DNA of 63,918 nt, filler included, from an uncultured bacterium (GTDB lineage Bacteria; CAYJRR01), in assembly GCA_964372275.1 (NCBI GenBank). It is 3 parts of 3 records of this genome, joined end to end, with 100 filler letters (N's around TTAATTAATTAA, not from the genome) between each part and the next. Parts side by side here need not be neighbours in the genome. Positions count along the whole stretch, not along the records: positions 29,842 to 59,379 come from CAYJRR010000056.1; 2 more parts are not named here. One strand, written 5' to 3'. A program made the translations under genes and the position numbers. Below the pieces are notes generated by a model, which did not search any database, was not told the DNA's origin, and saw only the letters and a program-made list of their open reading frames with translations. Shown piece by piece: positions 17,713 to 59,479 of the stretch; the stretch's first letter is position 1, and the number at the start of each line of letters is the position of its first letter.

Positions 17713-17740
17713 CTTCCCTCGAGAGCGGGAGGGACGGGCG

Positions 17741-46111: not shown

Positions 46112-46127
46112 TGGCATGCGCGTTGCG
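46112..46127 (+). promoter_or_regulatory. Sigma54 promoter
   Basis: TGGCATGCGCGTTGCG, near-consensus TGGCAC-N5-TTGC. Confidence 0.7.
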
Positions 46128-46160
46128 ACCTCCCGTCAAACGGATCACGGGGAGGGCGTC

Positions 46161-46718
46161 ATGAGTCGATTCCGGAGCCTGGCGGGAGGGTTGGCGTTGG
46201 TCGTTCTCGCGACGTCGGTGAGCGGACCGGCGATGGCCTCGGCACCGAGTTGGCCGTCGGAGGTCCGTACGGATGAGAACTGGCGGAAGGCACAGGAGAT
46301 CGTGCGTCTGCGCGCCGACGCGCGACGCATGAGCGATCTCGCCGCGCAGGCCTCGACGATCGGGATGGCAGCCACGGTAGTCGGTACGACGGCAGTCGGC
46401 GGACTGCTGGTGGCAAGCCTGGTCTTTCCGGCGCTCACGCTCGCCGTTCCCGTGGCCTTCGCCCTGACGGTCGGCGTAGGCAGCGCAACGATCCTCCTCA
46501 CGTTGTTGGCCGGCCGAAAGTCCACCCGACACAAGAGGGAGGCCGAGCGTCTCACGCGCGAGTTGCGGGGCCGCATGACCTTCGAGGAGCTAGGGTGGCT
46601 CCTCGACCAAGCCGAGCGCGCGATGGACGGCGCGAACGTCTCGCGATCGGCTCCGACGACCCCGACTGGGTCGGTCGTGGCGGGCAGCGCGGCGGCGGGT
46701 GTCGGCACGAGGCGGTGA
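46161..46718 (+). CDS. Exported protein with hydrophobic hairpin, paralogue 1
   Basis: GGGAGG RBS; signal peptide; EIVRLRA coiled coil, two hydrophobic helices, ends AGVGTRR. Confidence 0.7.
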   Translation: MSRFRSLAGGLALVVLATSVSGPAMASAPSWPSEVRTDENWRKAQEIVRLRADARRMSDLAAQASTIGMAATVVGTTAVGGLLVASLVFPALTLAVPVAFALTVGVGSATILLTLLAGRKSTRHKREAERLTRELRGRMTFEELGWLLDQAERAMDGANVSRSAPTTPTGSVVAGSAAAGVGTRR

Positions 46719-46754
46719 AGAACGAGATCCGGTGATTCCTTGAGGGGAGGTCCC

Positions 46755-47321
46755 ATGGTTCGGTTGCGAGCGTGGACGGGTTGGGTGGCGGTCCTGTTGT
46801 CCGTGACCGCCGTTTCGGAGCAGGCCGACGCCAAGTGGCCGCAGGGGCTCGGCGCGGCCAGCGCCCTCGCAGCGCAAAGGGACGAGACGCAGGCGATCGT
46901 CCGCGAGATCGTCCGGCTCCGGGCGGAGGAGAAGCGGCTCGAACGGCTCGGCGAGCGTTCGGCCGATCTCGGCGTCACGGTCGTCCAGTACGGCTCGACG
47001 GTGATGGCCGGCCTGTCGTTCATGAACCTGTTCCTTCCGGTCGCCCCGGCCTTCTGGATCATGACCGGCGCGACGCTGGCCGTCGGGGTCGGCGCGGTCG
47101 TCACATCGTTCGTCGCCGATTCCCGATCGCGGAAGCGCGGCGCGGAAGCCGACCGGCTCGAGACGGAGCTCGCGAAACGGATCGGCTTCGTCGAGATGAT
47201 GCGCCTGCTCCATCCCGACGAGGTCCTCGCGGGAAGCGACGTGCCGAGACGCGCGCCGACCGTGCCCGGTGGACCGGCGGCGACGACCGCCGAGAACGCC
47301 GGCGTCGGCACGCAGCGCTAG
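46755..47321 (+). CDS. Exported protein with hydrophobic hairpin, paralogue 2
   Basis: GGGAGG RBS; signal peptide; EIVRLRA, two hydrophobic helices, ends AGVGTQR. Confidence 0.7.
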   Translation: MVRLRAWTGWVAVLLSVTAVSEQADAKWPQGLGAASALAAQRDETQAIVREIVRLRAEEKRLERLGERSADLGVTVVQYGSTVMAGLSFMNLFLPVAPAFWIMTGATLAVGVGAVVTSFVADSRSRKRGAEADRLETELAKRIGFVEMMRLLHPDEVLAGSDVPRRAPTVPGGPAATTAENAGVGTQR

Positions 47322-48313
47322 ACGAGCACGTCGATCGCCTTCGGGAGCATCCGCACCTCGACCGGCGTCGTGCCGCGCACCTCGCCGTCGGGCATCAGGT
47401 GCCGCTCCACCACCGATTCGATCCGGACACGGGTTCCGCGATAGATCCGGACCTTCGGATGGGAGACGTGCGTCCCCAGAAAGAGGGACGGAAAGACCCG
47501 CAAGAGCTCCATCCGCCCCAGGTCCCCGGCGGCGATGATGTCGAGCTGTCCGTCGTCGGCGGAGGCGTTGGGGGCCATCCACATCCGGCCGCCGGTGTAT
47601 TGGGAGTTGCAGACCGCCGCCATCGCCAGCTTCCCGTCGAAGACGGTCCGGCCGTCGACGACGATCGTGGTCTCGGGGCGGGGAAGGGCGGCGAGCTTGG
47701 CCAGGACGCCGGCGACGTAGCCGCTCGGCCCCAGCGGCTTGAAGACGCGGTTGGTCGTCTCGGCGACGTCGGCGATGAAGCCGGCGCCGAGCAGGTTCAG
47801 GAACCACCCCGAGGCGCCGCGCGCCTCGAATCGGCCCACGTCGACCGGCCGGCGCTTTCCGAAGGCGATCCGCCGCAGCGCCTCTTCCGAGGAGTCGACG
47901 CCGAAGTCCCGGAGGAACGAGTTCCCCGTGCCGACCGGAACGACGCCAAGCGCCGTCGCCGGGCGGCCGCCCGCGGAGGTCCCGGGGGATCGTCGGCTGC
48001 CGGCCGCCAACCGTCGCCGGTCGCCAGGGGCCGTCTCGCCGAGGAGGCCTTGCAGCACTTCGTGCACCGTCCCGTCGCCGCCGACGGCGATCACCCGCGC
48101 CGCCCCCGTGCGGACCGCCGCCCGCGCGAGCTCCGTGGCGTGTCCGGCGCGCTCCGTTTCGTGCACCTCGAGCGTCCCCAGCGCGGCTTCGAGCCGCGCA
48201 AGGATCGCGGGGGCGCGCCGCCGTCCCTTCCCGCCCCCCGCGGCGGGATTGACCACCACGACGGTCCGGCCCGACGCCGCGCGTCTCCGACCCGGTCGTT
48301 TCGTCCGACGCAT
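47318..48313 (-). CDS. Diacylglycerol/lipid kinase (DgkB/YegS family)
   Basis: VNPAAGGG, GGDGTVHEV, PVGTGN, CNSQYTGG, DDGQLD, PDGE. Confidence 0.92.
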   Translation of the reverse strand: MRRTKRPGRRRAASGRTVVVVNPAAGGGKGRRRAPAILARLEAALGTLEVHETERAGHATELARAAVRTGAARVIAVGGDGTVHEVLQGLLGETAPGDRRRLAAGSRRSPGTSAGGRPATALGVVPVGTGNSFLRDFGVDSSEEALRRIAFGKRRPVDVGRFEARGASGWFLNLLGAGFIADVAETTNRVFKPLGPSGYVAGVLAKLAALPRPETTIVVDGRTVFDGKLAMAAVCNSQYTGGRMWMAPNASADDGQLDIIAAGDLGRMELLRVFPSLFLGTHVSHPKVRIYRGTRVRIESVVERHLMPDGEVRGTTPVEVRMLPKAIDVLV

Positions 48314-48440
48314 CGTAAACGCGCATCCTAATACACGCGCGCGGGGCTTCGTAAAGCCTCGTCCGAGCTCCCGCCTCCGAAATTCGGGCGACACGCCCGC
48401 CCGGAAAATGCTAGTAAGCGCCGGTTGGTGGGAGGATTCC

Positions 48441-49127
48441 ATGGCGAGGCTTCAGAAGGCTGCCTTCTTCCGGGTGGAGGGGACGCTGACCGCGAGGCCG
48501 ACGCTCGCGGCCGCGGCCTGGATGGCGGCGAACGCGCAGGCGATCGGCGACCGCGTCACCCGGCTCGGCAACGTGGCGTTGGCGGTTCCGTTCGCCCTCG
48601 CCGGGCCCTGGCGTGACGCCCGGCTCGCCACCCGCGTCGGCTGGATGGCGCTGCGGGGGATGACCGAGGACCGGCTCTTCGAGTTGGGCCGCGAATATTA
48701 CGACCGCCAGATCGAGCCCCACCTCCGTACGGTCGGCCTGGACCTGATCGCCACCGCCCGCGCCCAGGGGTGCCAGGTCATCCTGATCAGCGATTCATTG
48801 GACGTGATCGTGCGCCCCCTCGCCGACCGGGTCGGCGCGGCGGAGCTGGTCTGCAACCGGCTGGAGATGAAGCGGGGCGGGGCGGGGCAGCCGCCGACGG
48901 CGACCGGGCGTCTGCGGGAGCCGGTCGTCGCGGGGAATCTCTCCGGCCAGTGGGCCCGCGCCTTCGCCGACGAGCGCAAGATCGACCTCGCCGCGTCGTC
49001 GGCGTACGGCGCCCGGGACGAGGACGGCCTGCTGCTGAGCGCCATCGGACGACCGTGCGCCGTGAGCCCCGACCGGCACCTCCGCCGGCTGGCGCGCTCC
49101 CACGACTGGCCGGTGGTGGAAGGATGA
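48441..49127 (+). CDS. HAD-IB (SerB-like) fold protein with degenerate catalytic motifs
   Basis: GGAGG RBS; AAFFRVEGTL, IDLAASSAYG, PCAVSPD..LRR.A...DWPV. Confidence 0.8.
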   Translation: MARLQKAAFFRVEGTLTARPTLAAAAWMAANAQAIGDRVTRLGNVALAVPFALAGPWRDARLATRVGWMALRGMTEDRLFELGREYYDRQIEPHLRTVGLDLIATARAQGCQVILISDSLDVIVRPLADRVGAAELVCNRLEMKRGGAGQPPTATGRLREPVVAGNLSGQWARAFADERKIDLAASSAYGARDEDGLLLSAIGRPCAVSPDRHLRRLARSHDWPVVEG

Positions 49128-50800
49128 AGCGCGACCGCCGGATCGGAAGCGCCATGCGCGCCGCGCCTCTCGCGAAGCGGCCGGCGGGCTCCCTCCCGGA
49201 GACGCTGGCCGGAAAGCACCTGCTGGTGACCGGCGCGAGCGGCTTCCTCGGGAAGGTCTGGCTGGCGATGATCCTCGATCGCGTTCCGGAGATCGGCCAC
49301 CTCACGGTGCTGATCCGCGGGCGCAAACGCGAGACGGCGCTCGCCCGCTTCGAGCGCCTGGTCGACACCTCCCCCGTCTTCCGCCCGTTGCGCGCGCGGC
49401 ACGGCGCGCACCTCGGGAGCTTCCTCGCCGACCGTGTCGAGGTCGTCGAAGGAGACGTGTCGCGGCCGCTGTGCGGGCTCGACGAGAGGGGCGCGGCGCG
49501 GATCGCCCGGACGCTCGACGGCATCGTGCACTTCGCCGGCTCGACCGACTTCGAGCCCGACCCGCGCGAGGCGATCGCCGTCAACGTGCGCGGGGCGATC
49601 CACGTCGCCGACCTGGCGGCGCGCACCAAGTCGAAGCGGCTGCTGCACGTCTCGACCTGTTTCGTCGCCGGCAACCGGTCGGGCGAGATCGCGGAGACGC
49701 TCGTCCGCGGCGTCGGTCCCAACGGGACCGCCTTCCGGCCATCCGAGGAGCTCCGTCTCCTCGAGCACGACTGCGACCGCGTCGACCGCCGCTTCGACCG
49801 CGCCGGCTCCTCCGATGCGCGCCGCGCGCGGGTGGAGGCGGCGAACGCGCGCGCGGAGCGGCTCGGGTTCCCGAACATCTACACCTATTCGAAAGGGCTC
49901 GCCGAGCAGCTCCTCGCCGAGCGCGACGACGTGCGGACGGTGGTGGTGCGCCCGGCCATCGTGGAGTGCGCCGCCGCCTATCCGTTCCCCGGCTGGAACG
50001 AAGGGATCAACACCTCCGGTCCGCTCTTCTGGCTGCTGTCGAGTCCGTTCCGGCGGCTGCCGTCGAGGCCGGAGAACCGCTTCGACGTCGTCCCGGTCGA
50101 CACGGTGGCGCGGGGTTTGACCGTCGCGCTCGCCGACCAACTCCGCGATCGGGCGCACCCGGTCTACCAGCTGGCCTCATCGCATCGGAACCCGTTCACC
50201 TTCGGACGCGCCATCGAGCTGACGGGCTTGTCGACGCGACGCCGCTTCGCCGGTCCCGACGCGACGCCGCTCCAGCGGCTGGTGCTCCGCTACCTCGACG
50301 CCGTGCCGGCCCCGGACCGCCGCCCGAGCCGCTTCCTGCCGGCGGTCGGTCGCGCGGCGCGCGGCCTCGGCCGCTTCCTCGCCCGGATCGAGCCGCGCAA
50401 GGAGCTGCCGCCCCGGCTCGACCGGGCGTTCGGCAAGAAGCTCGACAAGGCGATCCGCGAGGCGTCGTCGGCGCTGGAAGGGGCCGACCGCTTCCTCGGT
50501 CGGATCGAATACATGCTCCGCCTCTACAAGCCGTTCATCCACGACAACGACTACGTCTTCCTCGCCGATCGGGTGGCGGCGGCGAGCGCGGCGCTTTCCC
50601 CCGCCGACCGGGAGACCTTCGGCTTCGACATCGAGGCGCTCGACTGGCGCCACTACTGGGTCGAGGTGCAGGGGCCGGGCCTGGCCACCTGGTGCTTCCC
50701 GCTGCTCCGGGGGAAGAAGGCCCCCGAGGATCGCCCCTCCGATCCGCCGTTCCGCATCACCCCCGCGGCGACGCATCCCGCGCTGGAAAGGATCGCCTAG
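49124..50800 (+). CDS. Fatty acyl-CoA/ACP reductase (FAR, male-sterility family)
   Basis: TGASGFLGKV, HVSTCFVAG, PNIYTYSKGLAE (YxxxK), RPAIVE..PFPGW.EG, DVVPVD, LDWRHYW. Confidence 0.88.
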   Translation: MKRDRRIGSAMRAAPLAKRPAGSLPETLAGKHLLVTGASGFLGKVWLAMILDRVPEIGHLTVLIRGRKRETALARFERLVDTSPVFRPLRARHGAHLGSFLADRVEVVEGDVSRPLCGLDERGAARIARTLDGIVHFAGSTDFEPDPREAIAVNVRGAIHVADLAARTKSKRLLHVSTCFVAGNRSGEIAETLVRGVGPNGTAFRPSEELRLLEHDCDRVDRRFDRAGSSDARRARVEAANARAERLGFPNIYTYSKGLAEQLLAERDDVRTVVVRPAIVECAAAYPFPGWNEGINTSGPLFWLLSSPFRRLPSRPENRFDVVPVDTVARGLTVALADQLRDRAHPVYQLASSHRNPFTFGRAIELTGLSTRRRFAGPDATPLQRLVLRYLDAVPAPDRRPSRFLPAVGRAARGLGRFLARIEPRKELPPRLDRAFGKKLDKAIREASSALEGADRFLGRIEYMLRLYKPFIHDNDYVFLADRVAAASAALSPADRETFGFDIEALDWRHYWVEVQGPGLATWCFPLLRGKKAPEDRPSDPPFRITPAATHPALERIA

Positions 50801-52101
50801 TGAACATCCTGATCACCGGTGGGACCGGCTTCCTCGGCTCCTACGTCGTCGACTCGCTCCTCTCCGGGACCGATCACCGCCTTTCGCTGATGGTGCGCGC
50901 GAAGTCGCGCGACGAGGCGGCGGCGAAGCTGTGGCGCGCGATGCAGCTCCACGGCAGCGAGACGCGGTTCCGCGCGGAGCTCAAGCGCATCGACTTCGTC
51001 TCCGGCGACCTGGTGGCGCCGGGCCTGGGACTCTCCGCCGAGGCGCGGCGCGACGTCGTCCGCTCGGTCGACTCGGTGCTGCACATCGCGGCGTCGCTCA
51101 ACCGCAAGTCGGAGAAGGAGTGTCTCAACACCAACCTCCGCGGGACGCTCTCGATGGTGAAGCTCGCCCGGGAGATAAAGGACGCGCGCGGACTGGCCCG
51201 CTTCAGCCACGTCTCGACGGTGGCGGTGGCCGGAAAGCGCGATCGGGAGGTGGTGCGTGAGGACGACGCCATCGACTGGAAGCGATCCGACTACGACCCC
51301 TACGCGCGCACCAAGAAGTTCTGCGAGCACATGATCCGGGAGCTCCTCCCCGACGTCCCGAAGACCTTCTTCCGGCCGTCGATCGTGATGGGGGACTCGC
51401 GAAAGCCGGAGACGACCCAGTTCGACATGGTGCAGGCGTTCTGCCTCCTCGCCGACCTCCCGTTCGTTCCGGTCCGGTCGGACGGTCGGCTCGACATCGT
51501 CAACGCCGACTTCGTCGGCAAGGCGATCGCGCGGCTGCACGCCAAGGAGCGCACCGACCACGAGATCTACCACCTGAGTGCCGGGACGGCGTCGTCGACC
51601 GCCGGACGCATCGTCGAGGCGCTGGTGCGCGGCACCGGCCGTCGGCCGACGCGCTTCCTGCCGCGCCTGGAGCGTCCGTTCTCCTGGACCGTCGACGCGC
51701 TGGCGGCGCTTCCCGGGCGAGGGCCGGTGCAGGGGATCGCGACGTTGCTCAAGGTCTTCCTGCCCTACATCACCTACGACACCGTCTTCGACAACGCCCG
51801 CGTGACCGGGGAGCTGGGGATCCGCCCGACGCCGTTCACGGAGTACTGCGCCCCGCTCTACGAATACGCCAAGCGGGTGAAGTTCGAATACCCCTACGCG
51901 CCGCTCTCCGACACGCCCCGGCGCGCGCCGACCACCCCGCGGAGGAAGAAGACCCCGCCGAAGTCGGCGCGCAAACTGGCGCCGCGGGCACCGGTCGGGA
52001 TCGCGGCGCGCACGCCGCCGCCCGCGCGTCGCGCGCCGGCGACGCCGACGCCGGTCGGCCGCCGGGCGCCGGCGACGAAGAGCGCGCGGAGGGCGGCGTG
52101 A
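50800..52101 (+). CDS. Extended SDR / thioester-reductase-like oxidoreductase with basic C-terminal tail
   Basis: ITGGTGFLG, N..GT, HVST, YARTK, RPSIVMGDS. Confidence 0.85.
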   Translation: MNILITGGTGFLGSYVVDSLLSGTDHRLSLMVRAKSRDEAAAKLWRAMQLHGSETRFRAELKRIDFVSGDLVAPGLGLSAEARRDVVRSVDSVLHIAASLNRKSEKECLNTNLRGTLSMVKLAREIKDARGLARFSHVSTVAVAGKRDREVVREDDAIDWKRSDYDPYARTKKFCEHMIRELLPDVPKTFFRPSIVMGDSRKPETTQFDMVQAFCLLADLPFVPVRSDGRLDIVNADFVGKAIARLHAKERTDHEIYHLSAGTASSTAGRIVEALVRGTGRRPTRFLPRLERPFSWTVDALAALPGRGPVQGIATLLKVFLPYITYDTVFDNARVTGELGIRPTPFTEYCAPLYEYAKRVKFEYPYAPLSDTPRRAPTTPRRKKTPPKSARKLAPRAPVGIAARTPPPARRAPATPTPVGRRAPATKSARRAA

Positions 52102-53585
52102 GTCTGTTCGACGCGCTCGCCGGGGCGCTCGACGCCGATCGGCTCCTCCAGCGGACGATGGCCGGTCTGATCGAGACGGCGAAGCTCCGCTACCCGGTCG
52201 ATCCCGGCGCGCAGTGGCGCCCGGGCTCGCCGCTCAAGCTCCTGCTTGCCGGCTACAGCGGGACCCGCAACACCGGCGCCGACGTCCGGGTCGAGGAGAT
52301 GATCCGGCAGTTCCGCCACCTCCTCGGCGACGACCACCTCGACCTGTCGATCCTCACCCTCGATCCGGCGAAGTCGCGCGGCTACTTCCGCACGGTGAAG
52401 CAGCTCCACCTGCCGCAGCTTTTTCCGAAGTTCCTGTTCGACGCCGTGCACCGCGTGCACGGGGTGGTCGCCTGCGAAGGGTCGATGTTCAAGTCGAAGT
52501 TCGCCAACGCGCTGTCGACGATGATGGTCGGGTCGTTGGGGCTGGCGTCGGCGGAGATGAAGCTGGCGATCGGTTACGGCGGCGAGGCCGGGGCGATGGA
52601 TCCCTCGCTCGAGCGGCTGGTGAAGCGCTACTGCCGCGACGCGCTGATTCTGACCCGCAACCGCGAATCGCAAGGGGTCCTGGCGCGGCTCGGCGTGCGC
52701 TCCAAGCCCGGGACCGACACCGCCTGGACCTTCGAGCCGGCGCCGCCCGCGGCCGGCGAAGCGCTGCTGAAGGCCGCCGGGTGGGACGGGCGAAGGACGC
52801 TGCTCGTCGTCTGTCCGATCAACCCGTTCTGGTGGCCGGTGAAGCCCGACCTGGTGAAGGGGGCGATGCACGCCCTCGCCGGGATGCACGACGATTCGCA
52901 CTACGAATCGGTCTACTTCCACAACGCCGGCTCGGAGGTCGACCGCAAGCAGCGGGTCTACCTCGACGCCATCGCCTCCGCCGTCGACCGCTACCGCAAG
53001 AAGTCGGGGGCGTTCGTGGCGGTGGTGGGGATGGAGGCGCTCGACCGCGAGGCGTGCGAAGGACTCGGCGGACGGCTGGGCGGGGCGCCGGTCTTCGTCT
53101 CGGACCGGATCGACATGTACGAGATGGTCTCGCTGCTGCGCCAGGCGTCGCTCCTGGTCGCGTCGCGCTACCACGCGGTGGTGACCTCGATGCCCGGCGG
53201 CGTGCCGTCGGCGGGGATCACCATGGACGAACGGATCCGCAACCTGATGGCCGACCGAGGCCAGCCCGAGCTGGCGATGGGGGTCGAGGACGAGGACCTC
53301 GAGGAGCGTCTCCACGAGACGTTGTGGCGGTTGCACCGCGATGCCGACGGCGTGCGCGCCGGGATCGCCGCCTGCGTGGAGAAGAACCTGGTGCGGATGG
53401 GGGAGATGGGGATCGCCTTCGTCGAGCACGTGCGCGCGGCGCACCCGCGTCTCCCGATCCGCGCCGGCCTCGGGGAGGGGGGCGACCCGTGGGCCCACCT
53501 GCCGCCGTTGCCGCAGGCGGTGGTGCGGATGCTCGCGCACGCCGCGGCGGGACGCGACGGCAAGCGGCACGGACGGGTGGCCTGA
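52098..53585 (+). CDS. Polysaccharide pyruvyl transferase family protein
   Basis: GYSGTRNTGAD, TRNRES, DTAW, VASRYHAVV motifs; GTGA overlap. Confidence 0.75.
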   Translation: MSLFDALAGALDADRLLQRTMAGLIETAKLRYPVDPGAQWRPGSPLKLLLAGYSGTRNTGADVRVEEMIRQFRHLLGDDHLDLSILTLDPAKSRGYFRTVKQLHLPQLFPKFLFDAVHRVHGVVACEGSMFKSKFANALSTMMVGSLGLASAEMKLAIGYGGEAGAMDPSLERLVKRYCRDALILTRNRESQGVLARLGVRSKPGTDTAWTFEPAPPAAGEALLKAAGWDGRRTLLVVCPINPFWWPVKPDLVKGAMHALAGMHDDSHYESVYFHNAGSEVDRKQRVYLDAIASAVDRYRKKSGAFVAVVGMEALDREACEGLGGRLGGAPVFVSDRIDMYEMVSLLRQASLLVASRYHAVVTSMPGGVPSAGITMDERIRNLMADRGQPELAMGVEDEDLEERLHETLWRLHRDADGVRAGIAACVEKNLVRMGEMGIAFVEHVRAAHPRLPIRAGLGEGGDPWAHLPPLPQAVVRMLAHAAAGRDGKRHGRVA

Positions 53586-53613
53586 TCTTTTCGATACCGA
53601 CGAGGAGCGAGAC

Positions 53614-55323
53614 GTGAGCCTTCCCCTTCGACGCGAGAGCCCGACCGACACCCCCGATTCGCGCCCGGCGGCGTTCGTCGGGACGATCTTCGATCATCTG
53701 GAACGGCATCCGGAGAAGGCGTTCGTCACCGAGGTGCGCGGCGAGACGCTGGTCCCGCTTCGCGGGGGCGACCTCCTGGAACGCGTGGCGCGGATGCGCG
53801 GCGCGCTCCGCGCCGAAGGGGTCCGCCGCGGCGATCGCGTGGCGCTGATCGCACCGAACGGCCACGACTGGGTTGCGGCCGACCTGGCGATGCTGGCGGA
53901 GGCGGTCGTCTCGGTTCCGCTCTACCACCGGCAGTCGCCGAACGAGCTGGTGGCGATGATGCGCGACGCGGGGACGAGCCTCGTCCTTTGCGCCGACGAG
54001 CCACTGGCCGCGGCGGTGCGCGAGCATTGGGACGGCGCGCCGATCCGGAAGCTGGACGAGCTGGGCCGCGGAGAGGCGATCGCCGACCTCCCCGCACCCG
54101 CCGGGTCCGCCGAGGCGGTGACGTTGATCTACACCTCCGGGACGAGCGGCGAGCCGAAGGGGGTCGTCCTCACCGGCGCCAACGTCGACCACATGCTGCC
54201 GGTCACGCGCGACGCGTTGCGGGAGATGATGGGGACCGGCCGTGGCGAGGAGGACCGCGTCTTCCACTACCTGCCGTTCTGCTTCGCCGGGTCGCGCATC
54301 GTGCTTTGGACCGGCCTGTTCCGCGGGGGCGGCATCCGCGTCTCGACCGATCTGAACGACCTGGCGCGCGAGCTGAAGACGGCGCGGCCGCACTACCTTC
54401 TCAACGTGCCGGCGCTCCTGGAGCGGATCCGCAAGGGGGTCGAAGGGAAGATCGCCGCGCAGCCCGCGCCGATCCGCGCGCTCTACGCGCGCGGCCGCGA
54501 CGGTTTTTTCCGGATCGCCCGAGGCGAAGGGCGCCTCGCGGATCGCGTGGCGTTCGCGCTCGCGCGGGCCGTCATCCTGAAAAAGATCCGCGCGCAGATC
54601 GGTCCCGACCTGGTCTGCCTGATCTGCGGTTCGGCGCCGCTCGCGGAGGAGACCCAGCGCTGGTTCGAGATGCTTGGGCTTCCGGTCTACCAGGTCTACG
54701 GCCTGACCGAGACGACCGCGATCGTCACCATGGATCGACCGAGCGCGGCCGGCGGTCTCGGGGCGATTCCGGGTCGGGTCGGGTGGGCAATCCCCGGGGT
54801 CGAGCTCAAGATCGGCGACGACGACGAGCTGCTCGTGCGCGGACCGAACGTCTTCCCCGGCTATTGGGGGAAGCCGCGCGAGACCGAGGCGGTCCTCGCC
54901 GGCGAGTGGTTGCGCACCGGCGACCAGGTCGAGCTGGACGGGACGGGGAACCTGCGGATCGTCGGCCGGGTGAAGAACCTGCTCGTCCCGACCTCGGGGC
55001 ACAACGTGGCGCCGGAGCCGATCGAGCAGGCGATCGTCGGCCGCGTCGACGGGGTGACGCACGCCGTCGTCGTCGGTCACGCGCGCCCGCACCTGGTGGC
55101 GATCGTCGCCGGGACGGCGTCGCGCGCGAAGGTCGTGGCGGGGATCGACGCGATCAACGCGGAGCTGCCGCACTACCGGCGGGTGCGCGCCTTTCACCTC
55201 ACCTCCGAGCCGTTCACGCCAGAGAGCGGGCTTCTGACGGCCAACCAGAAGCTCAAGCGCAAGGCGATCGAGGCCCACTTCCGATCCGAGATCGATCGGC
55301 TCTATGCGGAGTCCAAGGCGTGA
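53614..55323 (+). CDS. AMP-dependent long-chain fatty-acid ligase 1
   Basis: GAGGAG RBS; YTSGTSGEPKG, YGLTET, TGD, GRVKN..V...G.NV.PE.IE, LTANQKLKR. Confidence 0.92.
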   Translation: MSLPLRRESPTDTPDSRPAAFVGTIFDHLERHPEKAFVTEVRGETLVPLRGGDLLERVARMRGALRAEGVRRGDRVALIAPNGHDWVAADLAMLAEAVVSVPLYHRQSPNELVAMMRDAGTSLVLCADEPLAAAVREHWDGAPIRKLDELGRGEAIADLPAPAGSAEAVTLIYTSGTSGEPKGVVLTGANVDHMLPVTRDALREMMGTGRGEEDRVFHYLPFCFAGSRIVLWTGLFRGGGIRVSTDLNDLARELKTARPHYLLNVPALLERIRKGVEGKIAAQPAPIRALYARGRDGFFRIARGEGRLADRVAFALARAVILKKIRAQIGPDLVCLICGSAPLAEETQRWFEMLGLPVYQVYGLTETTAIVTMDRPSAAGGLGAIPGRVGWAIPGVELKIGDDDELLVRGPNVFPGYWGKPRETEAVLAGEWLRTGDQVELDGTGNLRIVGRVKNLLVPTSGHNVAPEPIEQAIVGRVDGVTHAVVVGHARPHLVAIVAGTASRAKVVAGIDAINAELPHYRRVRAFHLTSEPFTPESGLLTANQKLKRKAIEAHFRSEIDRLYAESKA

Positions 55324-56210
55324 GCCGGGGCGAGCTGCGCGCCGTCGGCGGGGAAGGCCCTGGGCCGGCGGAAAATTCGACGAACTTGGCTTTCTTCGAG
55401 GGCAAGGCGCTGCGCTGGCGTCTCGACGGAGAGATCCTCGAGGTTACGCTCGACCGGGCCCCGTGCAACGAGATCGGCACGACCGCCCTGGAGGAGCTCG
55501 AGCGGCTGGCCGAGTTGCTCCATTACGGCGCGGCGGGGGCGAAGGCGATGACGATCGCCAGCGCGCGCCCCGCCGGCTTCTGCGCCGGCGCCGACCTGCG
55601 CGAGCTCCACGACGGTCTGCTCGCCCGCCGGGACGATGCGGACGAAGCCTGGCGCGCGCGAAGCGCCCGCGAGGTTCGGGTTTTCATCGACCGGATCCAC
55701 GCCGCCTTCGACGCGATCGATACCGCGCCGCTCGTCACCGTCGCGGCGGTGCACGGCTTCGTCTTCGGCGGCGGGTTCGAGCTGGCGCTGACCTGCGACC
55801 TGATCGTCGCCGACAAGAGCGCGCGCTTCTGCTTCCCGGAGCTCCGGCTCGGGCTCGTCCCCGGCTTCGGCGGGATCCCGCGTCTGCAGCGCGACGTCGG
55901 CAACGCCGTCATCCGCGATCTGCTTCTGAGCGGCCGAAGCCTCGGCGCCGCGCGCGCCCACGAGCTGGGGCTCGTCTCGCAGGTCGTCGCCCGCGGCGAG
56001 CACCTCGGCGTCGCGCGCCGGCTTGCGGAGCAGGCGGCGCGCTTCGATCCGGCGGCGGCGCGCGCCGCCAAGGCGTTCGCCAAGCCGCTCCCCGCCGAGG
56101 CGCTGGCGCGCGAGAAGGACCTCTTCTGCCGGATGATCGCCTCCCCCACCGTCGAGGCGGCGCTCGATCGCTTCGTGAACAGCAACGACGTGAGGCCCTA
56201 CCTGCCATGA
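55320..56210 (+). CDS. Enoyl-CoA hydratase/isomerase family protein
   Basis: FCAGADL, GGGFELALTCD, FPELRLGLVPG (both catalytic Glu present). Confidence 0.9.
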   Translation: MSRGELRAVGGEGPGPAENSTNLAFFEGKALRWRLDGEILEVTLDRAPCNEIGTTALEELERLAELLHYGAAGAKAMTIASARPAGFCAGADLRELHDGLLARRDDADEAWRARSAREVRVFIDRIHAAFDAIDTAPLVTVAAVHGFVFGGGFELALTCDLIVADKSARFCFPELRLGLVPGFGGIPRLQRDVGNAVIRDLLLSGRSLGAARAHELGLVSQVVARGEHLGVARRLAEQAARFDPAAARAAKAFAKPLPAEALAREKDLFCRMIASPTVEAALDRFVNSNDVRPYLP

Positions 56211-56443
56211 CACAGGAACACGGTGCCCGGCTCCTCTCCCTCGCCGAGCGGCGCTTCCGCAAGTCGTCGGGCTCCCTGAAGCTCGAGGACGACCTCTTCG
56301 AATCGCTCGCGATCGACTCGATCCAGGCGATGGAGCTCCTGACCGAGATCGAGGAGGCCTTCGGCGTCGAGATCCCCGACTACGAGGTCCAGGACGTGCG
56401 CACCTTCGCCGGGCTCGCCGCCGTGATCGCGAGGCGGCTGTGA
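56207..56443 (+). CDS. Acyl carrier protein
   Basis: LAIDSIQAMEL...IEEAFGVEIPD; ATGA overlap. Confidence 0.9.
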   Translation: MTQEHGARLLSLAERRFRKSSGSLKLEDDLFESLAIDSIQAMELLTEIEEAFGVEIPDYEVQDVRTFAGLAAVIARRL

Positions 56444-58254
56444 GCGCGATTCCGCAGTTCCCGGAGCGGTGGCGGGCGAAGGAGGCCGACCGTGCGATCG
56501 ATCCCACGCGCTACCAGTCGTTGGGCGAGATCCTGGGCGACGCGCTGGTCCAGTTCAAGACGAACCTGGCGCTGGTCGAGACCGACCGCAAGCGCGAGAG
56601 CGCCAGCTACTCCTACCTGGAGCTGAAGCGCGCCTCGATGGCGGTCGCCCGGTGGCTCGTCGCCAGCCGTCTCGGCCCCGGCGATCGCGTGGCGATCCTG
56701 ATGAGCAACCAGTCGCGGTGGTTGATCGGCGCGCTCGGCGCGCTCCACCGTGGGGCGGTGCTCGTCCCGATCGACTACAAGCTCTCCCCGGCGGAGCAGC
56801 GGGCCCTGCTCAACCACTCCAAGGCGAAGGTGCTCCTCGTCGAGTACCCGCTCTGGAAGAGGCTGGTCGACGCCGGCGGCGATTTCCTCCCCCGGGCGTT
56901 GGTCTCCGAGGCGCCGGGCGTACGCGCCGCCGTGAATGCGGCGGCGGAGGCCGTGTCGGCGGAGCTGGCGCGCTGCGGGGCGGAGCGGTGGGAGCTCCTC
57001 GACGAGGAGGGTCCGGAGCCGGCGTTCGTGCGGCGCACGCGCGACGACGTGGCCTCGATCGTCTACTCCTCGGGGACCGGCGGGCGGCCGAAGGGCTGCC
57101 AGCTCACCCATGACGCCTACCTGGAGCAGTACCGCTCCCTCTCCGCGATCTATCCGCTCGTGGAGGGGGACCGGTACTTCTCGATCCTGCCGACCAACCA
57201 CGCGATCGACTTCATGTGCGGGTTCGTCGGTCCGCTGTGCGGCGGCGCGACCGTCGTCCACCAGCGAACGCTGCGTCCGGAGTTCCTGCTCGACACGATG
57301 AAGCGGTACCGGGTCACGCACATGGCGCTGGTGCCGCTGGTGCTGACCGCGTTCGAGCGGGCGCTCAAGGAGAAGCTGGACGCGCTGCCGCCGTGGAAGC
57401 GGACGATCGTCGACACGCTCGCCAACGCGAACGAGTCGCTCACCCGACGCGCGCCGAACCGCGGTTTGAGCCGCGCGCTGCTCCGCCCGATCCACGAGGC
57501 GTTCGGCGGCGAGCTCAAGTACCTGTTCTGCGGCGGGGCGTTCGTCGACCGCGCGCGCGCCGAGTTCTTCTACCGCCTCGGGATTCCGGTGGTGATCGGC
57601 TACGGCCTGACCGAGGCCTGCACCGTCGTCACGTTGCACGACTTGCGGCCGTTCCGGGCCGACTCGGTCGGACGGCCGCTCCCCGGGACCGAGGTGAAGG
57701 TGGTCGATCCGGACGCGAACGGCATCGGCGAGGTGCTCGTCCGCTCGCGGACCCTGATGAAGGGTTACCTGGACGACGACGCGCTCACCGCCGAGACGAT
57801 CGTCGACGGGTGGCTCAAGACCGGCGACCGCGGCTGGCTCGACGCGTCGAACCACCTCCACCTCGTCGGACGCAGCAGGAACATGATCGTCACCGAGGGG
57901 GGGAAGAACGTCTATCCGGAGGACGTCGAGAGCGCGTTCGAGGGCCTCCCCTGCGAGGAGCTGGCGGTCTACGCCGCCGACTACCTCTGGCCCCGCGGGA
58001 AGCTGGTCGGCGAGGAGCTGGTGGCGGTCGTCCGCCCTCGCGCGAACGGCCCCGACGCGGTGGAGCTCCTGGCGCAGATCCGAGCCAAGAATCGCGTCCT
58101 TCCGGAGCACAAGCGGCTCGCCGGGCTGATCGAGTGGAGCGACGCCTTCCCGCGGACGGCGTCGATGAAGCTCAAGCGCGACCCGCTCGCCGAGTCGCTC
58201 CGCGAGGAGCTCACCCGCGACGCCATCCGCCCGATGGAGACGGTCGTCGAATGA
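56440..58254 (+). CDS. AMP-dependent long-chain fatty-acid ligase 2
   Basis: YSSGTGGRPKG, GYGLTE, TGD, GRSRNMIV..GGKNVYPE, PRTASMK. Confidence 0.92.
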   Translation: MSAIPQFPERWRAKEADRAIDPTRYQSLGEILGDALVQFKTNLALVETDRKRESASYSYLELKRASMAVARWLVASRLGPGDRVAILMSNQSRWLIGALGALHRGAVLVPIDYKLSPAEQRALLNHSKAKVLLVEYPLWKRLVDAGGDFLPRALVSEAPGVRAAVNAAAEAVSAELARCGAERWELLDEEGPEPAFVRRTRDDVASIVYSSGTGGRPKGCQLTHDAYLEQYRSLSAIYPLVEGDRYFSILPTNHAIDFMCGFVGPLCGGATVVHQRTLRPEFLLDTMKRYRVTHMALVPLVLTAFERALKEKLDALPPWKRTIVDTLANANESLTRRAPNRGLSRALLRPIHEAFGGELKYLFCGGAFVDRARAEFFYRLGIPVVIGYGLTEACTVVTLHDLRPFRADSVGRPLPGTEVKVVDPDANGIGEVLVRSRTLMKGYLDDDALTAETIVDGWLKTGDRGWLDASNHLHLVGRSRNMIVTEGGKNVYPEDVESAFEGLPCEELAVYAADYLWPRGKLVGEELVAVVRPRANGPDAVELLAQIRAKNRVLPEHKRLAGLIEWSDAFPRTASMKLKRDPLAESLREELTRDAIRPMETVVE

Positions 58255-59159
58255 GCGCCCGTGGCGAGGTACTCGTGGCCTCCGACGAAGGCGAATGGCG
58301 CCCCGAAGGTACGTTGACGGGGCCGGCATCCGCGTCGCGGCCCGCCTCGTCCAAAGAGTCGGCCGGCGCGCCAACGGGCGCGGGAACGCCTCGGCCGAGG
58401 GTTGCGACTCCGTTCGACGCCAACTGGATCGACAAGGCGATCGCCGTGCTCCTATGGATCATCGGCGTCGCCTGGATGACGCCGATGTTCGCCTTGATGT
58501 GGGTCGGCGCCGCTCTGCTCGGCCCCGATCGTGCCGACGGGCTGGCGCGCCTCTACACCCGGGGCCAGATCCGCCTCACCGGCTCCCGCTGGCGCGCGGT
58601 GGTGGATCCCGCCGTGCGCGCCGACACGCAGTACGTCTTCCTGCAGAACCACGTCAACATGCTGGACCACACCACCCTCTACTGCGCGACGCCGCACTTC
58701 AAGCAGGGGATGGAGCTGGAGAAGCACTTCCGCTATCCGGTCTACGGCTGGTACATGCGCTCGCGCGGCACGATCCCGGTGCGGCGCGGCGATCCCTCGC
58801 AGGCCAAGCAGCTCCTCCGCCTGATGCAGGCAGAGATTTCCAAGGGCCACTCGGTGCTCGCCTTCCCCGAGGGGACGCGCACCCTCGACGGCCGGGTCGG
58901 ACCCTTCAAGAAGGGGATCTTCTTCCTCGCCCGCGACCTCGGCGTCCCGGTCGTCCCGGTGACCGTCACCGGCATGTTCGAGGTGATGCGCAAGGGAAGC
59001 TGGCTCCTCCGCCCCGGCCACACCGTCACCGTCCACGTCGACGCCCCGATCCCGACCGCGGGCCTGAAGGACGAAGAGCTCCCCGCGCTGATGGACCGGG
59101 TCCACGCCGCCATGGCCGCCCACGTCGACCGCTACTACGCCGCCCGCCGCGCGAGATGA
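58251..59159 (+). CDS. PlsC-family lysophospholipid acyltransferase
   Basis: NHVNMLD (HX4D), FPEGTR, FKKG, VPVVPV. Confidence 0.92.
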   Translation: MSARGEVLVASDEGEWRPEGTLTGPASASRPASSKESAGAPTGAGTPRPRVATPFDANWIDKAIAVLLWIIGVAWMTPMFALMWVGAALLGPDRADGLARLYTRGQIRLTGSRWRAVVDPAVRADTQYVFLQNHVNMLDHTTLYCATPHFKQGMELEKHFRYPVYGWYMRSRGTIPVRRGDPSQAKQLLRLMQAEISKGHSVLAFPEGTRTLDGRVGPFKKGIFFLARDLGVPVVPVTVTGMFEVMRKGSWLLRPGHTVTVHVDAPIPTAGLKDEELPALMDRVHAAMAAHVDRYYAARRAR

Positions 59160-59239
59160 AGCTCGATGCCGACGCCACGTTTTTACCAGCTTCGAGATTC
59201 CGCTTCGGCATTGCCCGGGGTCGGCATTCCCCGGGTGCC

Positions 59240-59379: not shown

Positions 59380-59479
59380 NNNNNNNNNNNNNNNNNNNNN
59401 NNNNNNNNNNNNNNNNNNNNNNNTTAATTAATTAANNNNNNNNNNNNNNNNNNNNNNNNNNNNNNNNNNNNNNNNNNNN
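59380..59479. other. Artificial contig spacer
   Basis: 44 N + TTAATTAATTAA + 44 N. Confidence 0.97.

Follow-up and report, generated by a model that had tools for sequence, protein, structure and literature searches.

In Myxococcus xanthus, the elbABCDE cluster (ether lipid biosynthesis; MIBiG BGC0000871) encodes a HAD-like protein, ElbB, and an NAD-dependent protein, ElbE, in addition to ElbD. A sequence-only reading of a 63,918-nt window, the whole stretch of DNA analysed here, had proposed that the modules of ElbD are encoded by separate genes in an uncultured bacterium. Is this locus a local rearrangement of an elb-like system, and what lipid would it make? The evidence points to a conserved ten-gene lipid-biosynthesis operon that appears to be an ancient sister of myxobacterial elb. 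Its predicted product is an alkyl-ether or otherwise fatty-alcohol-derived glycerolipid, a reading to which we assign a probability of roughly 0.55.

Organization of the cluster

Genes were called by third-position GC frame analysis of the DNA, which is approximately 71% GC. Nine plus strand genes, g1 to g9, occupy positions 48441–59159 next to one minus strand gene (Table 1). 7/8 plus strand junctions overlap by 1–4 nt, the exception being a 28-nt gap between g4 and g5. The frame calls and Pfam/NCBIfam searches bear out the earlier description of nine co-oriented, mostly overlapping genes with a divergent lipid kinase, and the same searches found no ketosynthase in the cluster, as had been claimed. 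The kinase and g2, g3, g6, g7 and g9 retain their catalytic motifs. An artificial linker (44 N, TTAATTAATTAA, 44 N) follows 220 bp after the end of the cluster. Since the DNA beyond this linker comes from another contig, the right-hand genes in the window are not real neighbors of the cluster.

The kinase scores 141 bits against TIGR00147 (cut-off 118.65) and has a GGDGT motif at residue 121. Its longest ORF encodes 374 aa. Because ortholog alignments begin at residues 45–63, the start is probably ATG 48313 (331 aa) rather than 48442, which would leave a 127-bp divergent intergenic region toward g1. Neither a sigma-70-like consensus site nor an Rfam family match was found in that region.

Table 1. 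Positions of the predicted genes and other features in the window.
Feature	Position	Strand	Basis
YegS/BmrU-type lipid kinase (DAGK_cat + YegS_C)	47318..48442	-	Pfam/NCBIfam, motif
Likely divergent intergenic/promoter region, kinase/g1	48314..48440	.	Inferred from revised kinase start
g1, HAD-IB-fold protein, dead active site	48441..49127	+	Pfam HAD 57.6 bits
g2, FAR1-type fatty acyl reductase	49124..50800	+	NAD_binding_4 174 bits
g3, stand-alone thioester reductase, NRPS/PKS terminal R-domain type	50800..52101	+	NAD_binding_4 146 bits
g4, distant PEP-dependent ketal-pyruvyltransferase superfamily member, GT-B-like fold	52098..53585	+	PS_pyruv_trans PF04230
g5, long-chain acyl-CoA-synthetase-like ligase, FadD11-like	53614..55323	+	AMP-binding + AMP-binding_C_3
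g6, crotonase-family enoyl-thioester hydratase	55320..56210	+	ECH_1
g7, 78-aa acyl carrier protein	56207..56443	+	PP-binding; D-S38-I phosphopantetheine site
g8, adenylate-forming ligase, ElbD adenylation-domain counterpart	56440..58254	+	AMP-binding
g9, PlsC-type acyltransferase	58251..59159	+	Pfam Acyltransferase; H134xxxxD139
Contig-join linker, artificial	59380..59479	.	End of 29,538-bp contig carrying cluster

Distribution and gene order

A search with g4 matched at least 599 stretches, and at least 589 species genomes were confirmed. By these matches the operon is common to hundreds of bacterial species of soil and marine origin. Distribution and gene order had been named beforehand as checks. 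The cluster recurs, and order is kept, with the kinase inside the operon, in 29/45 loci that have both flanks; 20 of the 29 carry every gene and the other 9 lack only g5. Where at least 3.8 kb of upstream sequence was available (63 loci), the HAD gene was found in 56 loci and the FAR and thioester reductase genes in 57 each. Where at least 6.8 kb lay downstream (51 loci), the hydratase was found in 44, g8 and the kinase in 37 each, the ACP and g5 in 36 each and the acyltransferase in 33, the ACP and acyltransferase counts being lower bounds because tblastn thresholds can miss diverged genes of these two kinds. Gene order is kept across Myxococcota, Acidobacteriota and others, and its presence in other phyla indicates an arrangement beyond chance. 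The idea of a local or recent split of an ElbD-like system does not agree with this distribution, by which the cluster is an old, stable split relative of the ElbD system and not a recent fission.

The divergent kinase is not the typical layout. Its homologue in relatives is an internal operon gene, on the plus strand after g8, in 40/40 loci with a kinase match; in this genome the gene has been relocated to a divergent upstream position. A convergent CDP-alcohol phosphatidyltransferase gene adjoins the operon in 11 acidobacterial loci.

Among cultured bacteria, Paraliomyxa miuraensis SMH-27-4 (locus L044) is a candidate carrier, with matches to 9/10 operon genes and g1–g8 in order. A gap of approximately 0.8 kb precedes g8; the kinase follows g8 at a distance of approximately 2.7 kb, and g9 gave no match.

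Relation to ElbD-type proteins

Comparisons were made with database proteins of ElbD architecture (FAR-ligase-ACP-acyltransferase) rather than with M. xanthus ElbA–E themselves. The long proteins most closely related to g8 are nine that combine FAR, AMP-binding, PP-binding and Acyltransferase domains. 9/9 match g8 at 29–36% identity and 7/9 match g2 near full length at 29–35% identity; of the other two, P0122 matches g2 in the C-terminal part only and P0128 does not match it. g9 gave weak local matches to the C-terminal acyltransferase of the nine proteins, and g7 matched none of them. There are 1505 long g2-related proteins (E ≤ 1e-20), and among the matches listed most of 120 have the ElbD architecture. 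FAR-acyltransferase fusions are also present among g2 relatives.

FAR and A-domain phylogenies were built as quick searches without bootstraps. The FAR tree sets a g2 clade (32 rows, support 99) apart from a clade (56 rows, support 99) containing all 28 ElbD-type rows. In the A-domain tree, which includes few other stand-alone ligases, one split (support 97) divides g8 and ElbD-type A domains from g5 and NRPS/PKS/Aas domains. By these trees g2 is a sister lineage of the N-terminal domains, and g8 of the adenylation domains, in ElbD-architecture fusion proteins. Such phylogenies had also been named as a check, and the g2 and g8 clades do adjoin the ElbD-type domain clade. The proposed homology of stand-alone genes to ElbD modules is thus upheld for g2 and g8, while for g9 it extends to weak local matches only.

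The first ligase, g5, is a different matter. g8 outscores g5 on 34/35 fused proteins, g5 groups apart from ElbD-type adenylation domains, and it is missing from 9/29 complete loci. Judged by this occurrence, g5 is an accessory operon member. Its absences and its place in the tree weaken the earlier suggestion that two fatty acids are activated.

Predicted functions of the encoded proteins

The HAD assignment of g1 holds for the fold, as indicated by Pfam and by an AF2 model (pLDDT 92.8) whose closest structures are 3fvv and SerB, but not for the active site. Motif I reads F-R-V-E-G where DxDGT is expected. The nucleophile position is R or K in 57/57 orthologs, so the catalytic aspartate is gone, and the motif III Lys and first motif IV Asp are also missing. 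With these residues g1 cannot be a canonical phosphatase. g1 and g2 form one ORF in 17/57 loci, and natural g1-g2 fusions also occur among database proteins (P0278, P0285, P0290 and P0310). g2 has GASGFLG and Y253xxxK motifs and aligns end to end with the solved FAR 7eoz (E 4.7e-38), although its Sterile domain is weak (29.6 bits, under the 35.4 cut-off).

g3, described earlier as an SDR, is instead an NRPS/PKS-type thioester reductase and not a classical SDR. It has GGTGFLG and Y168xxxK motifs, and among solved structures it is most closely related to MxaA (1.3e-21), to R domains of PKS/NRPS and to carboxylic acid reductase. The R domain of MxaA releases alcohols. The two catalytic glutamates are present in g6 (GGGFE154, PE175), and g9 has one hydrophobic segment (residues 62–91).

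The pyruvyltransferase-like assignment of g4 is supported by a PF04230 score above the cut-off (32.3 versus 25.3 bits). The protein is far under the cut-off for the CsaB equivalog TIGR03609 (66 versus 213 bits) and also far under that for WcaK (NCBIfam). An AF2 model (pLDDT 89.5) has a two-domain GT-B-like fold that in structural comparison comes closest to generic GT-B enzymes (TM about 0.5); no solved structure was matched at the sequence level. Among the best 80 of at least 589 confirmed relatives, R187, R357, H359 and R379 are kept in 80/80 and Y53 in 79/80. The spacing of these five residues resembles that of the CsaB PEP-binding residues Y14/R148/R306/H308/K328. Identity across phyla is 50–70%.

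Proposed pathway and alternative products

Acyl-CoA would be provided by g5 or a housekeeping ligase and reduced to a fatty aldehyde or alcohol by g2 with its non-catalytic HAD-fold partner g1. A carboxylic acid would be adenylated by g8, which presumably loads it on carrier g7; the bound thioester would then be processed by hydratase g6 and reductively released by g3. The C-O-C linkage is assigned to g4, using PEP, because g4 is the only operon protein whose superfamily makes such bonds. Recognised ether-forming enzymes (AGPS, PlsA/Ger) were not found in the operon by Pfam/NCBIfam. The free lipid alcohol from the g4 step would be phosphorylated by the kinase and acylated by membrane-anchored g9, giving a phosphatidic-acid-like product for head-group attachment. 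The operon product is probably a fatty-alcohol-derived membrane lipid, as predicted from these enzyme families.

We wondered whether g4 might instead cap a diol. In that case g6 would hydrate a carrier-bound enoyl or 3-hydroxyacyl chain and g3 would reduce it to an alkane-1,3-diol, unless a monoacylglycerol-type diol served instead; g4 would add a pyruvate ketal to this long-chain diol or hydroxy-alcohol, producing an anionic, phosphate-free, non-ether amphiphile, and the kinase and acyltransferase would give a phosphorylated or acylated variant. Ketal capping is the canonical reaction of the g4 superfamily, whose PEP-binding-like residue spacing is kept, and in the 4,6-ketals found on sugars the ketal spans a 1,3-diol. 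The two glutamates of g6 and the similarity of g3 to alcohol-releasing R domains also fit. However, Pfam/NCBIfam found no acyl-CoA/ACP dehydrogenase in the operon to make the enoyl substrate, and this scheme leaves no role for the FAR-HAD pair, which is closer to ElbD and more tightly coupled than the rest of the operon. A literature search combining pyruvyl transferase with ether lipids returned nothing relevant, and we know of no pyruvate-ketal diol lipid of this kind. We consider this product unlikely.

An NRPS-like specialised-metabolite cluster, in which ligase, ACP, R domain and hydratase yield a fatty aldehyde or alcohol that diffuses as a signal instead of bulk membrane lipid, is quite improbable. 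The A-ACP-R logic and the PKS/NRPS terminal reductases nearest to g3 would suit it, as would a TetR regulator directly downstream of the operon in 15 loci. PMC12766979 attributes a developmental signalling role to products made by the elb cluster of M. xanthus. Conversely, the kinase, the PlsC-type membrane acyltransferase and the acidobacterial CDP-alcohol phosphatidyltransferase point to phospholipid assembly, and a core envelope function would better account for the very high conservation that g4 shows between phyla, in at least 589 species.

A wax-ester or neutral storage lipid, made by esterifying the FAR alcohol, is very unlikely even with FAR, acyl-activating enzymes and an acyltransferase all present, as there is no WS/DGAT-type enzyme, g9 is PlsC-type with HX4D, and such a pathway would leave the kinase, ACP, R domain, hydratase and g4 unused. 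Equally remote is cell-surface glycan modification, with g4 pyruvylating a polysaccharide that the acyl-handling genes acylate: g4 is annotated in databases as a WcaK/CsaB-like polysaccharide pyruvyl transferase, but it falls far under both cut-offs and the conserved set has no glycosyltransferase, flippase, polymerase or sugar-nucleotide gene.

Comparison with known systems

g3 resembles PKS/NRPS R domains (MxaA) and carboxylic acid reductases in sequence, in sharing an operon with a ligase and carrier, and in A-carrier-R logic. It differs from PKS/NRPS R domains in standing alone and in scoring 117 bits against TIGR01746 (cut-off 213). With CsaB of Paenibacillus alvei and Pvg1p of S. pombe, g4 shares PF04230 and the GT-B-like two-domain fold, and with CsaB the invariant Arg/Arg-x-His/Arg set, spaced like R148/R306/H308/K328. 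In contrast to these enzymes, it is under the equivalog cut-off and lies in a lipid operon without glycan genes. The eukaryote-like peroxisomal route (FAR1, GNPAT, AGPS) and MXAN_1676-1674 of M. xanthus likewise have a FAR1-type reductase, as g2 would be, supplying fatty alcohol; the operon differs in having no AGPS homologue (Pfam/NCBIfam).

The closest counterpart is M. xanthus elb. Both have a FAR-like reductase, an adenylating ligase, an ACP and an AGPAT-like acyltransferase, and, as had been proposed, HAD and NAD-reductase genes accompany the ElbD modules here (g1, g3), matching the published description of elbB and elbE. In this operon each of the four ElbD modules has a gene to itself, and the HAD protein is without its nucleophile, ElbB being compared by description. 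The PEP-pyruvyltransferase-like enzyme, enoyl hydratase, kinase and usual second ligase are absent from the published elb description. Since hydratase, kinase and pyruvyltransferase are not annotated there, the extra genes may signal a different product. The published account leaves the steps to the alkyl ether open, and because ElbD's own chemistry is unsettled in print, kinship with ElbD does not fix the mechanism here.

A preprint (bioRxiv 10.64898/2026.06.23.733905) describes elb-like clusters of sponge symbionts and Acidobacteriota in which elbD is split between the reductase and adenylation domains, and clades with DAG kinase, glycerol-3-phosphate acyltransferase and CDP-alcohol phosphatidyltransferase neighbors. 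In its main text 'pyruvyl' and 'hydratase' do not occur, and the complete four-way split and dead HAD are not among the features described. The variants resemble the acidobacterial form of the operon, which, compared by text description, may correspond to 'clade 1' of that study.

Organization of the gene cluster

Because the window is about 71% G+C, gene calling relied on third-position GC and on frame plots, in preference to ORF lists. Nine genes lie side by side on the plus strand: g1 (HAD-fold), g2 (FAR, a reductase), g3 (thioester-reductase-type, TR), g4 (pyruvyltransferase-like, PT), g5 (ligase), g6 (hydratase, ECH), g7 (ACP), g8 (second ligase) and g9 (PlsC-type acyltransferase, AT). 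Seven of the eight junctions overlap by 1–4 nt and one has a gap of 28 nt. The overlaps are the signature of what is predicted to be a translationally coupled operon. A tenth gene, encoding a YegS-type lipid kinase, is divergent to the operon. The sequence-only reading had described these genes as a split, elaborated ElbD-like lipid cluster. The gene cluster as a whole was confirmed, and Pfam and NCBIfam searches upheld both the folds assigned to its genes and the statement that it has no ketosynthase.

The kinase ORF is probably over-extended. Since alignments with 40 orthologs mostly start at residues 45–63, the ATG at 48313 is the likelier start, which leaves 127 bp for divergent promoters. 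No match to the sigma-70 consensus was found in the kinase/g1 intergenic region, and no Rfam family was found in 46000–59379. Terminator-like sites were not commoner than in shuffled sequence (6 vs 4.1).

The window is made of at least three joined contigs, with linkers of 44 N, TTAATTAATTAA, 44 N at two places, and it contains a scaffold gap of 10 N. The piece bearing the cluster is 29,538 bp long. The cluster ends 220 bp short of the contig end, so genes from 59480 on are not cluster neighbours. A supposed AT-rich intergenic gap after g9 was rejected as the low-GC stretch is the N linker, and ORFs that span linkers, such as one of 1333 aa, are artefacts of contig joining. Upstream of the cluster are ordinary chromosomal genes for a Na+/H+ exchanger, a CysZ-like protein, a subtilase, a hydrolase, seryl-tRNA synthetase and tRNAs. 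Directly past the second linker, on another contig and outside the cluster, is an ORF with an Exo_endo_phos (sphingomyelinase/phosphatase-fold) domain. A neighbouring contig piece carries an unusual grouping of two CotH-kinase-like genes around a VTC-domain gene and the gene of a 599-aa protein that has a thymidylate-kinase-like domain.

Positions of the genes, assembly features and other ORFs discussed in the text
Feature	Position	Strand	Remark
Operon g1–g9	48441–59159	+	nine genes
g2, reductase	49124–50800	+	stand-alone
g8, ligase	56440–58254	+	stand-alone
Lipid kinase	47318–48442	-	divergent to operon
First linker	29742–29841		contig join
Second linker	59380–59479		contig join
Scaffold gap	41899–41908		10 N
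1333-aa ORF	59428–63429	-	artefact
Exo_endo_phos ORF	59569–60150	+	other contig
CotH/VTC grouping, first gene	15744–17621	-	
CotH/VTC grouping, second gene	17660–18496	+	
CotH/VTC grouping, third gene	19516–21315	+	
CotH/VTC grouping, fourth gene	21982–23187	+	

Conservation of the operon in other genomes

Of the 8000 candidates scored in searches with g4, 7414 are homologues at E≤1e-3. Identity to g4 is 60–71% in the best 120, and the named ones are from Myxococcota. An alignment of 22 of these (A1) was used to scan one genome per species. At least 599 stretches matched; confirmation was obtained for 589, from which the 80 best loci were kept. Locus L044 belongs to Paraliomyxa miuraensis SMH-27-4, a candidate cultured carrier of the operon. 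By record title 36 of these are Myxococcota (Sandaracinaceae, Polyangiales, Nannocystales), 23 are Acidobacteriota (Terriglobia, Blastocatellia, Acidiferrales) and 10 are "Proteobacteria"; the others are scattered or unlabelled, and several MAG labels look unreliable. No match to g4 was found in plasmid records.

Synteny was mapped by tblastn of the ten window proteins against the 80 loci (E≤1e-10, at least 40% of the query). The counts are lower bounds because tblastn may miss diverged short genes. In the 63 loci with at least 3.8 kb upstream, HAD was found in 56, FAR in 57 and the second reductase g3 in 57. Where at least 6.8 kb was available downstream (51 loci), the hydratase was found in 44, g8 in 37, the kinase in 37, ACP in 36, g5 in 36 and the acyltransferase in 33. 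Both flanks were available in 45 loci. Twenty have the complete order HAD-FAR-TR-PT-lig-ECH-ACP-lig-kinase-AT, 9 have the same order without g5, 13 are partial and 3 have g4 alone. The operon is a conserved unit and not a local oddity. The first ligase, g5, is absent from 9/29 complete loci and is dispensable in them.

In every one of the 40 loci with a kinase match, the kinase gene shares the strand of the operon and comes after g8 (between g8 and g9 in 34; no g9 match in 6). None of the 40 has it upstream and divergent, as in the window. There the 4-nt overlap of g8 and g9 indicates a clean relocation of the kinase.

Two genes recur downstream. Directly after the operon, and in its orientation, 15 loci carry a TetR-family regulator (L004, L006, L009, L011, L014, L016, L019, L022, L023, L026, L031, L032, L040, L052, L053). 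A CDP-alcohol phosphatidyltransferase gene lies convergently, on the opposite strand, in 11 acidobacterial loci (L043, L048, L055, L061, L064, L069, L070, L071, L075, L077, L078), which hints that the operon product receives a phospholipid head group. Four loci (L002, L007, L017, L039) have a solitary g4 homologue, 53–67% identical, among unrelated neighbours (SecDF, RecJ, a radical-SAM MiaB-like gene, FG-GAP proteins). The remaining operon genes, if present, are elsewhere in these genomes.

Relationship of the reductase and ligases to ElbD

To compare the cluster with ElbD, the multidomain ether-lipid enzyme of M. xanthus, we used database proteins with the exact ElbD architecture (FAR-ligase-ACP-acyltransferase; here called ElbD-type) and not M. 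xanthus ElbD itself. Among longer relatives of g8, nine such proteins (1220–1583 aa) rank far above NRPS/PKS proteins. In BLASTP g8 matched 9/9 (29–36% identity, E 9e-81 to 6e-65) and g2 matched 7/9 near full length (29–35% identity, E 5e-81 to 2e-51). The exceptions for g2 were P0122, matched in its C-terminal part only (E 1.5e-17), and P0128, with no match. The matches of g5 reached only 26–30% identity (E 3e-47 to 3e-35), those of g9 were local (E 1e-15 to 5e-8), and those of g3 were weak and confined to the Rossmann part. No match at E≤1e-3 to the nine proteins was found for g7, g1, g4, g6 or the kinase. In 35 fused proteins that match both ligases, g8 outscored g5 in 34 and tied in one.

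When 1.84 billion representatives were searched exhaustively with g2, its relatives numbered 6202 at E≤1e-3, of which 468 were at E≤1e-30. The best 150 include stand-alone forms, ElbD-type proteins, and FAR-acyltransferase, FAR-ligase and HAD-FAR fusions. In a quick IQ-TREE tree of 133 reductase domains, from which 18 of the best 150 were dropped for short matches, the window g2 falls in a 32-row clade (SH-aLRT 99) with 30 stand-alone rows. A separate 56-row clade (SH-aLRT 99) contains all 28 ElbD-type rows. Long relatives of g2 number 1505 at E≤1e-20. ElbD architecture is found in most of the 120 listed, among which the names Polyangia, Polyangiaceae, Kofleriaceae, Anaeromyxobacteraceae, Bradymonadia and Planctomycetota occur. 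In 16 long relatives no fusion of the reductase with g4, hydratase or kinase was found. NCBIfam offers no model specific to ElbD-type proteins.

The adenylation tree holds 87 domains: the two window ligases, 30 rows from 16/80 loci, 30/136 ElbD-type domains and 25/93 other long proteins. It separates g8 and the ElbD-type domains from g5 and the NRPS/PKS/Aas domains with support 97, and a branch with support 99 sets the ElbD-type domains apart from all others; few other stand-alone ligases are sampled in it, and three "g5" rows are cross-matches on g8 in loci without g5.

The kinship with ElbD proposed in the sequence-only reading therefore stands for the reductase g2 and the ligase g8, which group with ElbD-type domains in the trees and in BLASTP. 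The picture of a split ElbD needs amending. In these trees g2 and g8 appear as sister lineages of the ElbD-type domains, which points to an old, stable split form and not to a recent fission of ElbD.

An ElbD-type protein searched against plasmids matched only a ligase-ACP-acyltransferase gene of Rubrobacter radiotolerans, with uninformative neighbours, and ordinary ligases. The Rubrobacter gene (L081, plasmid 1, 33458–36193) is a fusion without a reductase, is 31% identical to the matching ElbD-type part and has unrelated neighbours.

The HAD-fold protein and its link to the reductase

The g1 protein matches PF12710 with 57.6 bits. Its AF2 model (pLDDT 92.8) has a TM score of 0.80 to 3fvv and 0.62–0.71 to SerB structures, and the modelled fold can confidently be called HAD-IB, Rossmannoid with a cap. 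To our knowledge, motif I bears the nucleophilic aspartate in all HAD phosphatases. In g1 this motif is F-R-V-E-G. Across 57 orthologs, Arg occupies the position of the nucleophile in 56 and Lys in one; at +2 there is Glu in 56 and Asp in one. A profile of 41 orthologs (A2) matches phosphoserine phosphatases over the C-terminal half only, and in the profile alignment serine stands where motif III has its lysine, and motif IV lacks its first aspartate. The combination of motif I DxD, motif III Lys and motif IV acidic pair that marks HAD phosphatases is thus not present. By these motifs g1 is predicted to be CATALYTICALLY dead. The idea that this gene encodes a phosphatase was dropped, since the motif I nucleophile, the motif III lysine and the first motif IV aspartate are lost in g1 and its orthologs.

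In 17/57 loci, all of the Acidobacteriota type, g1 and g2 share one ORF without a stop (L048, L050, L055–L057, L060, L061, L063, L064, L067, L069–L071, L075–L078). They are separate in the other 40, as in the window. Database HAD-FAR fusions are P0278, P0285, P0290 and P0310, and the R-x-E-G motif was seen independently in P0285 and P0290. P0285 is 58–80% identical to acidobacterial g2 orthologs. We conclude that g1 is a putative non-catalytic or repurposed partner of reductase g2, not the phosphatase suggested by its fold name. The partnership is proposed from the natural fusions.

Motifs of the other enzymes

The reductase g2 matches PF07993 (174 bits) and keeps both the GxxGxxG motif, as GASGFLG, and the YxxxK motif, at Y253. 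Residues 24–521 align end to end with residues 9–503 of the solved fatty acyl-CoA reductase 7eoz (E 4.7e-38). Its Sterile domain scores 29.6 bits, under the cut-off of 35.4. An NAD_binding_4 domain with its motifs followed by a C-terminal Sterile region makes g2 a FAR1-type protein.

Reductases of PKS/NRPS R domains and carboxylic acid reductases act on carrier-bound thioesters. Among solved structures g3 is nearest to MxaA (1.3e-21), the terminal reductase for myxalamid, and to other R domains of PKS/NRPS and carboxylic acid reductases. It scores 117 bits against TIGR01746, below the cut-off of 213, and an ACP gene lies in the same operon. It had been called an SDR, and is not a classical one.

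The hydratase g6 keeps two glutamates, GGGFE154 and PE175, which we take to be the crotonase catalytic residues, and it should be a true hydratase or dehydratase. An Asp-Ser phosphopantetheine site is present in g7, HX4D in g9 and GGDGT in the kinase. Residues 62–91 of g9 are the sole membrane-like segment in the gene set. The ligase g5 is FadD11/ACSL-like with AMP-binding_C_3.

The pyruvyltransferase-like protein

The g4 protein scores 32.3 bits against PF04230, narrowly above the cut-off of 25.3. Residues 47–391 cover nearly the whole CsaB model TIGR03609 (66 bits vs a cut-off of 213), and scores against WcaK models are below 20 bits. The AF2 model (pLDDT 89.5, pTM 0.88) has a GT-B-type fold. 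Its best PDB matches in Foldseek are generic glycosyltransferases and UDP-GlcNAc 2-epimerases at TM 0.36–0.50. The family profile had 0 matches to PDB sequences at E≤10, and the ESM Atlas gave only g4's own family.

Mutagenesis of P. alvei CsaB is reported to show PEP binding by R148, H308 and K328; docking adds R306, and the acceptor site includes Y14 and F16 (PMC10435577). Pvg1p is described as having its fold and arginines in common with CsaB (PMC4872226). In g4 R187, R357, H359 and R379 are invariant in 80/80 loci and Y53 is found in 79/80; all are also invariant in the 22 aligned homologues. The spacings are 134 vs 134 in CsaB for Y53-R187, 170 vs 158 for R187-R357 and 20 vs 20 for H359-R379, the equivalence of residues being drawn from spacing and the TIGR03609 alignment range, not from a residue-level alignment. 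From these residues g4 likely uses PEP.

A saccharide acceptor in a glycan pathway is expected of ketal-pyruvyltransferases such as CsaB, Pvg1p and WcaK. No glycan-synthesis genes were found in the conserved operon or in the recurrent flanks of the relatives' loci. With no glycan gene alongside it, g4 probably acts on a lipid or a precursor of one.

Proposed pathway

The operon is best read as making a glycerolipid that is an alkyl ether or is derived in some other way from a fatty alcohol, a reading to which we give a little over even odds (about 0.55). This account draws on the gene set, its conservation, the intact motifs, the kinship of two modules with ElbD-type proteins, and the dead HAD protein with its fusion; the remainder we infer. 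The FAR/HAD pair (g2 with g1) would yield a fatty alcohol or aldehyde. A carboxylic acid would be loaded by g8 onto the ACP g7, and the hydratase g6 and the R-type reductase g3 would process and then release the ACP thioester. The only C-O-C-forming chemistry encoded in the operon would be that of g4. The kinase would phosphorylate the free lipid alcohol, and acylation by g9 would give a phosphatidate analogue ready for head-group transfer.

In a bolder version, which we regard as improbable, the glycerol backbone of the ether lipid would be supplied by PEP and not by glycerol phosphate or DHAP. Enolpyruvyl transfer from PEP forms an enol ether in the chemistry of MurA. Here g2, with g1, would make a fatty alcohol, and g4 would add the enolpyruvyl group of PEP to give a 2-alkoxyacrylate, an enol ether. 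This acid would be placed on g7 by g8, hydration at C3 of the enoyl thioester by g6 would give 2-O-alkylglyceroyl-S-ACP, and reduction by g3 would give 2-O-alkylglycerol for phosphorylation by the kinase and acylation by g9. Such a scheme would account for a hydratase without a dehydrogenase and for the kinase, and would give every puzzling gene a role. If true, this way of making alkyl glycerol ethers would be new to biology. The ethers expected from it are of sn-2 type and so differ from those of M. xanthus, which are sn-1 and are described in a review as 1-O-alkyl lipids.

Four other products were weighed against the glycerolipid. One is a lipid diol carrying a pyruvate ketal, and another is a lipid signal made in the manner of an NRPS. 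Wax esters are argued against by the acyltransferases encoded, as the only one in the operon is the PlsC-type g9 (PF01553) and there is no WS/DGAT. Modification of a glycan fits poorly with a conserved operon and recurrent flanks that lack glycan-synthesis genes.

The operon matters because aerobic bacterial ether-lipid synthesis is only partly understood, and the makers of the ethers and tetraethers of Acidobacteriota, lipids that serve as climate proxies, are still debated. The operon is a large unstudied elb relative in the phyla of that debate, present in at least 589 species genomes. It adds three candidate players: a hydratase, a transferase predicted to depend on PEP, and a HAD protein, catalytically dead, that would partner the reductase. 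Its separate and presumably soluble modules, with a membrane segment in g9 only, should be easier to reconstitute than ElbD-type proteins of 1,400–1,600 residues.

Comparison with known systems

According to a review and a PNAS paper, the M. xanthus elbABCDE operon encodes two proteins of the NAD-dependent epimerase/dehydratase family (ElbA, ElbE), a HAD-like protein (ElbB), a protein of unknown function (ElbC) and ElbD, a single polypeptide with FAR-like, acyl-CoA-synthetase, ACP and AGPAT-like domains. The same sources state that alkyl ether lipids of M. xanthus need ElbD and probably also ElbE, and that the route from fatty acid to ether, including the step forming the ether bond, is unknown. 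ElbA–ElbE correspond to MXAN_1531–1527, and ElbD is listed as UniProt Q1DC43. No paper linking a pyruvyltransferase with ether lipids or elbC was found in the literature searched.

Diverse elb-like clusters, including an elbD split into reductase and ligase, are described for sponge symbionts in a 2026 preprint (bioRxiv 10.64898/2026.06.23.733905), with DAG kinases, G3P acyltransferases and CDP-alcohol phosphatidyltransferases as neighbours. It credits acidobacterial split forms to Sinninghe Damste et al. 2018. The terms "pyruvyl" and "hydratase" are absent from its main text. The operon may overlap "clade 1" of that preprint.

A survey of Myxococcota BGCs reports that the canonical elb cluster is not conserved in Nannocystis, Polyangium and Sorangium and is absent from Sandaracinus amylolyticus. 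Among the best 80 loci the split operon occurs in records of Sandaracinaceae, Nannocystales and Polyangiales. We infer that it could fill the elb gap in Polyangia.

Some metagenome screens count "ElbD homologues" by BLAST(P) with thresholds of E<1e-30 and an identity of 30% or more. Such screens may partly score the stand-alone g2 and g8 proteins, since these show 29–36% identity to ElbD-type proteins with E down to 1e-81.

With the HAD-fold g1 and the NAD_binding_4 protein g3, the operon has candidate counterparts of the HAD-like ElbB and the NAD-dependent ElbE. ElbD is a single polypeptide, whereas here its parts are four separate genes, g2, g8, g7 and g9, likewise separate in the mapped relatives. 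The operon belongs to the wider elb-related world, lacks the single polypeptide that defines ElbD, and carries components not described for elb.
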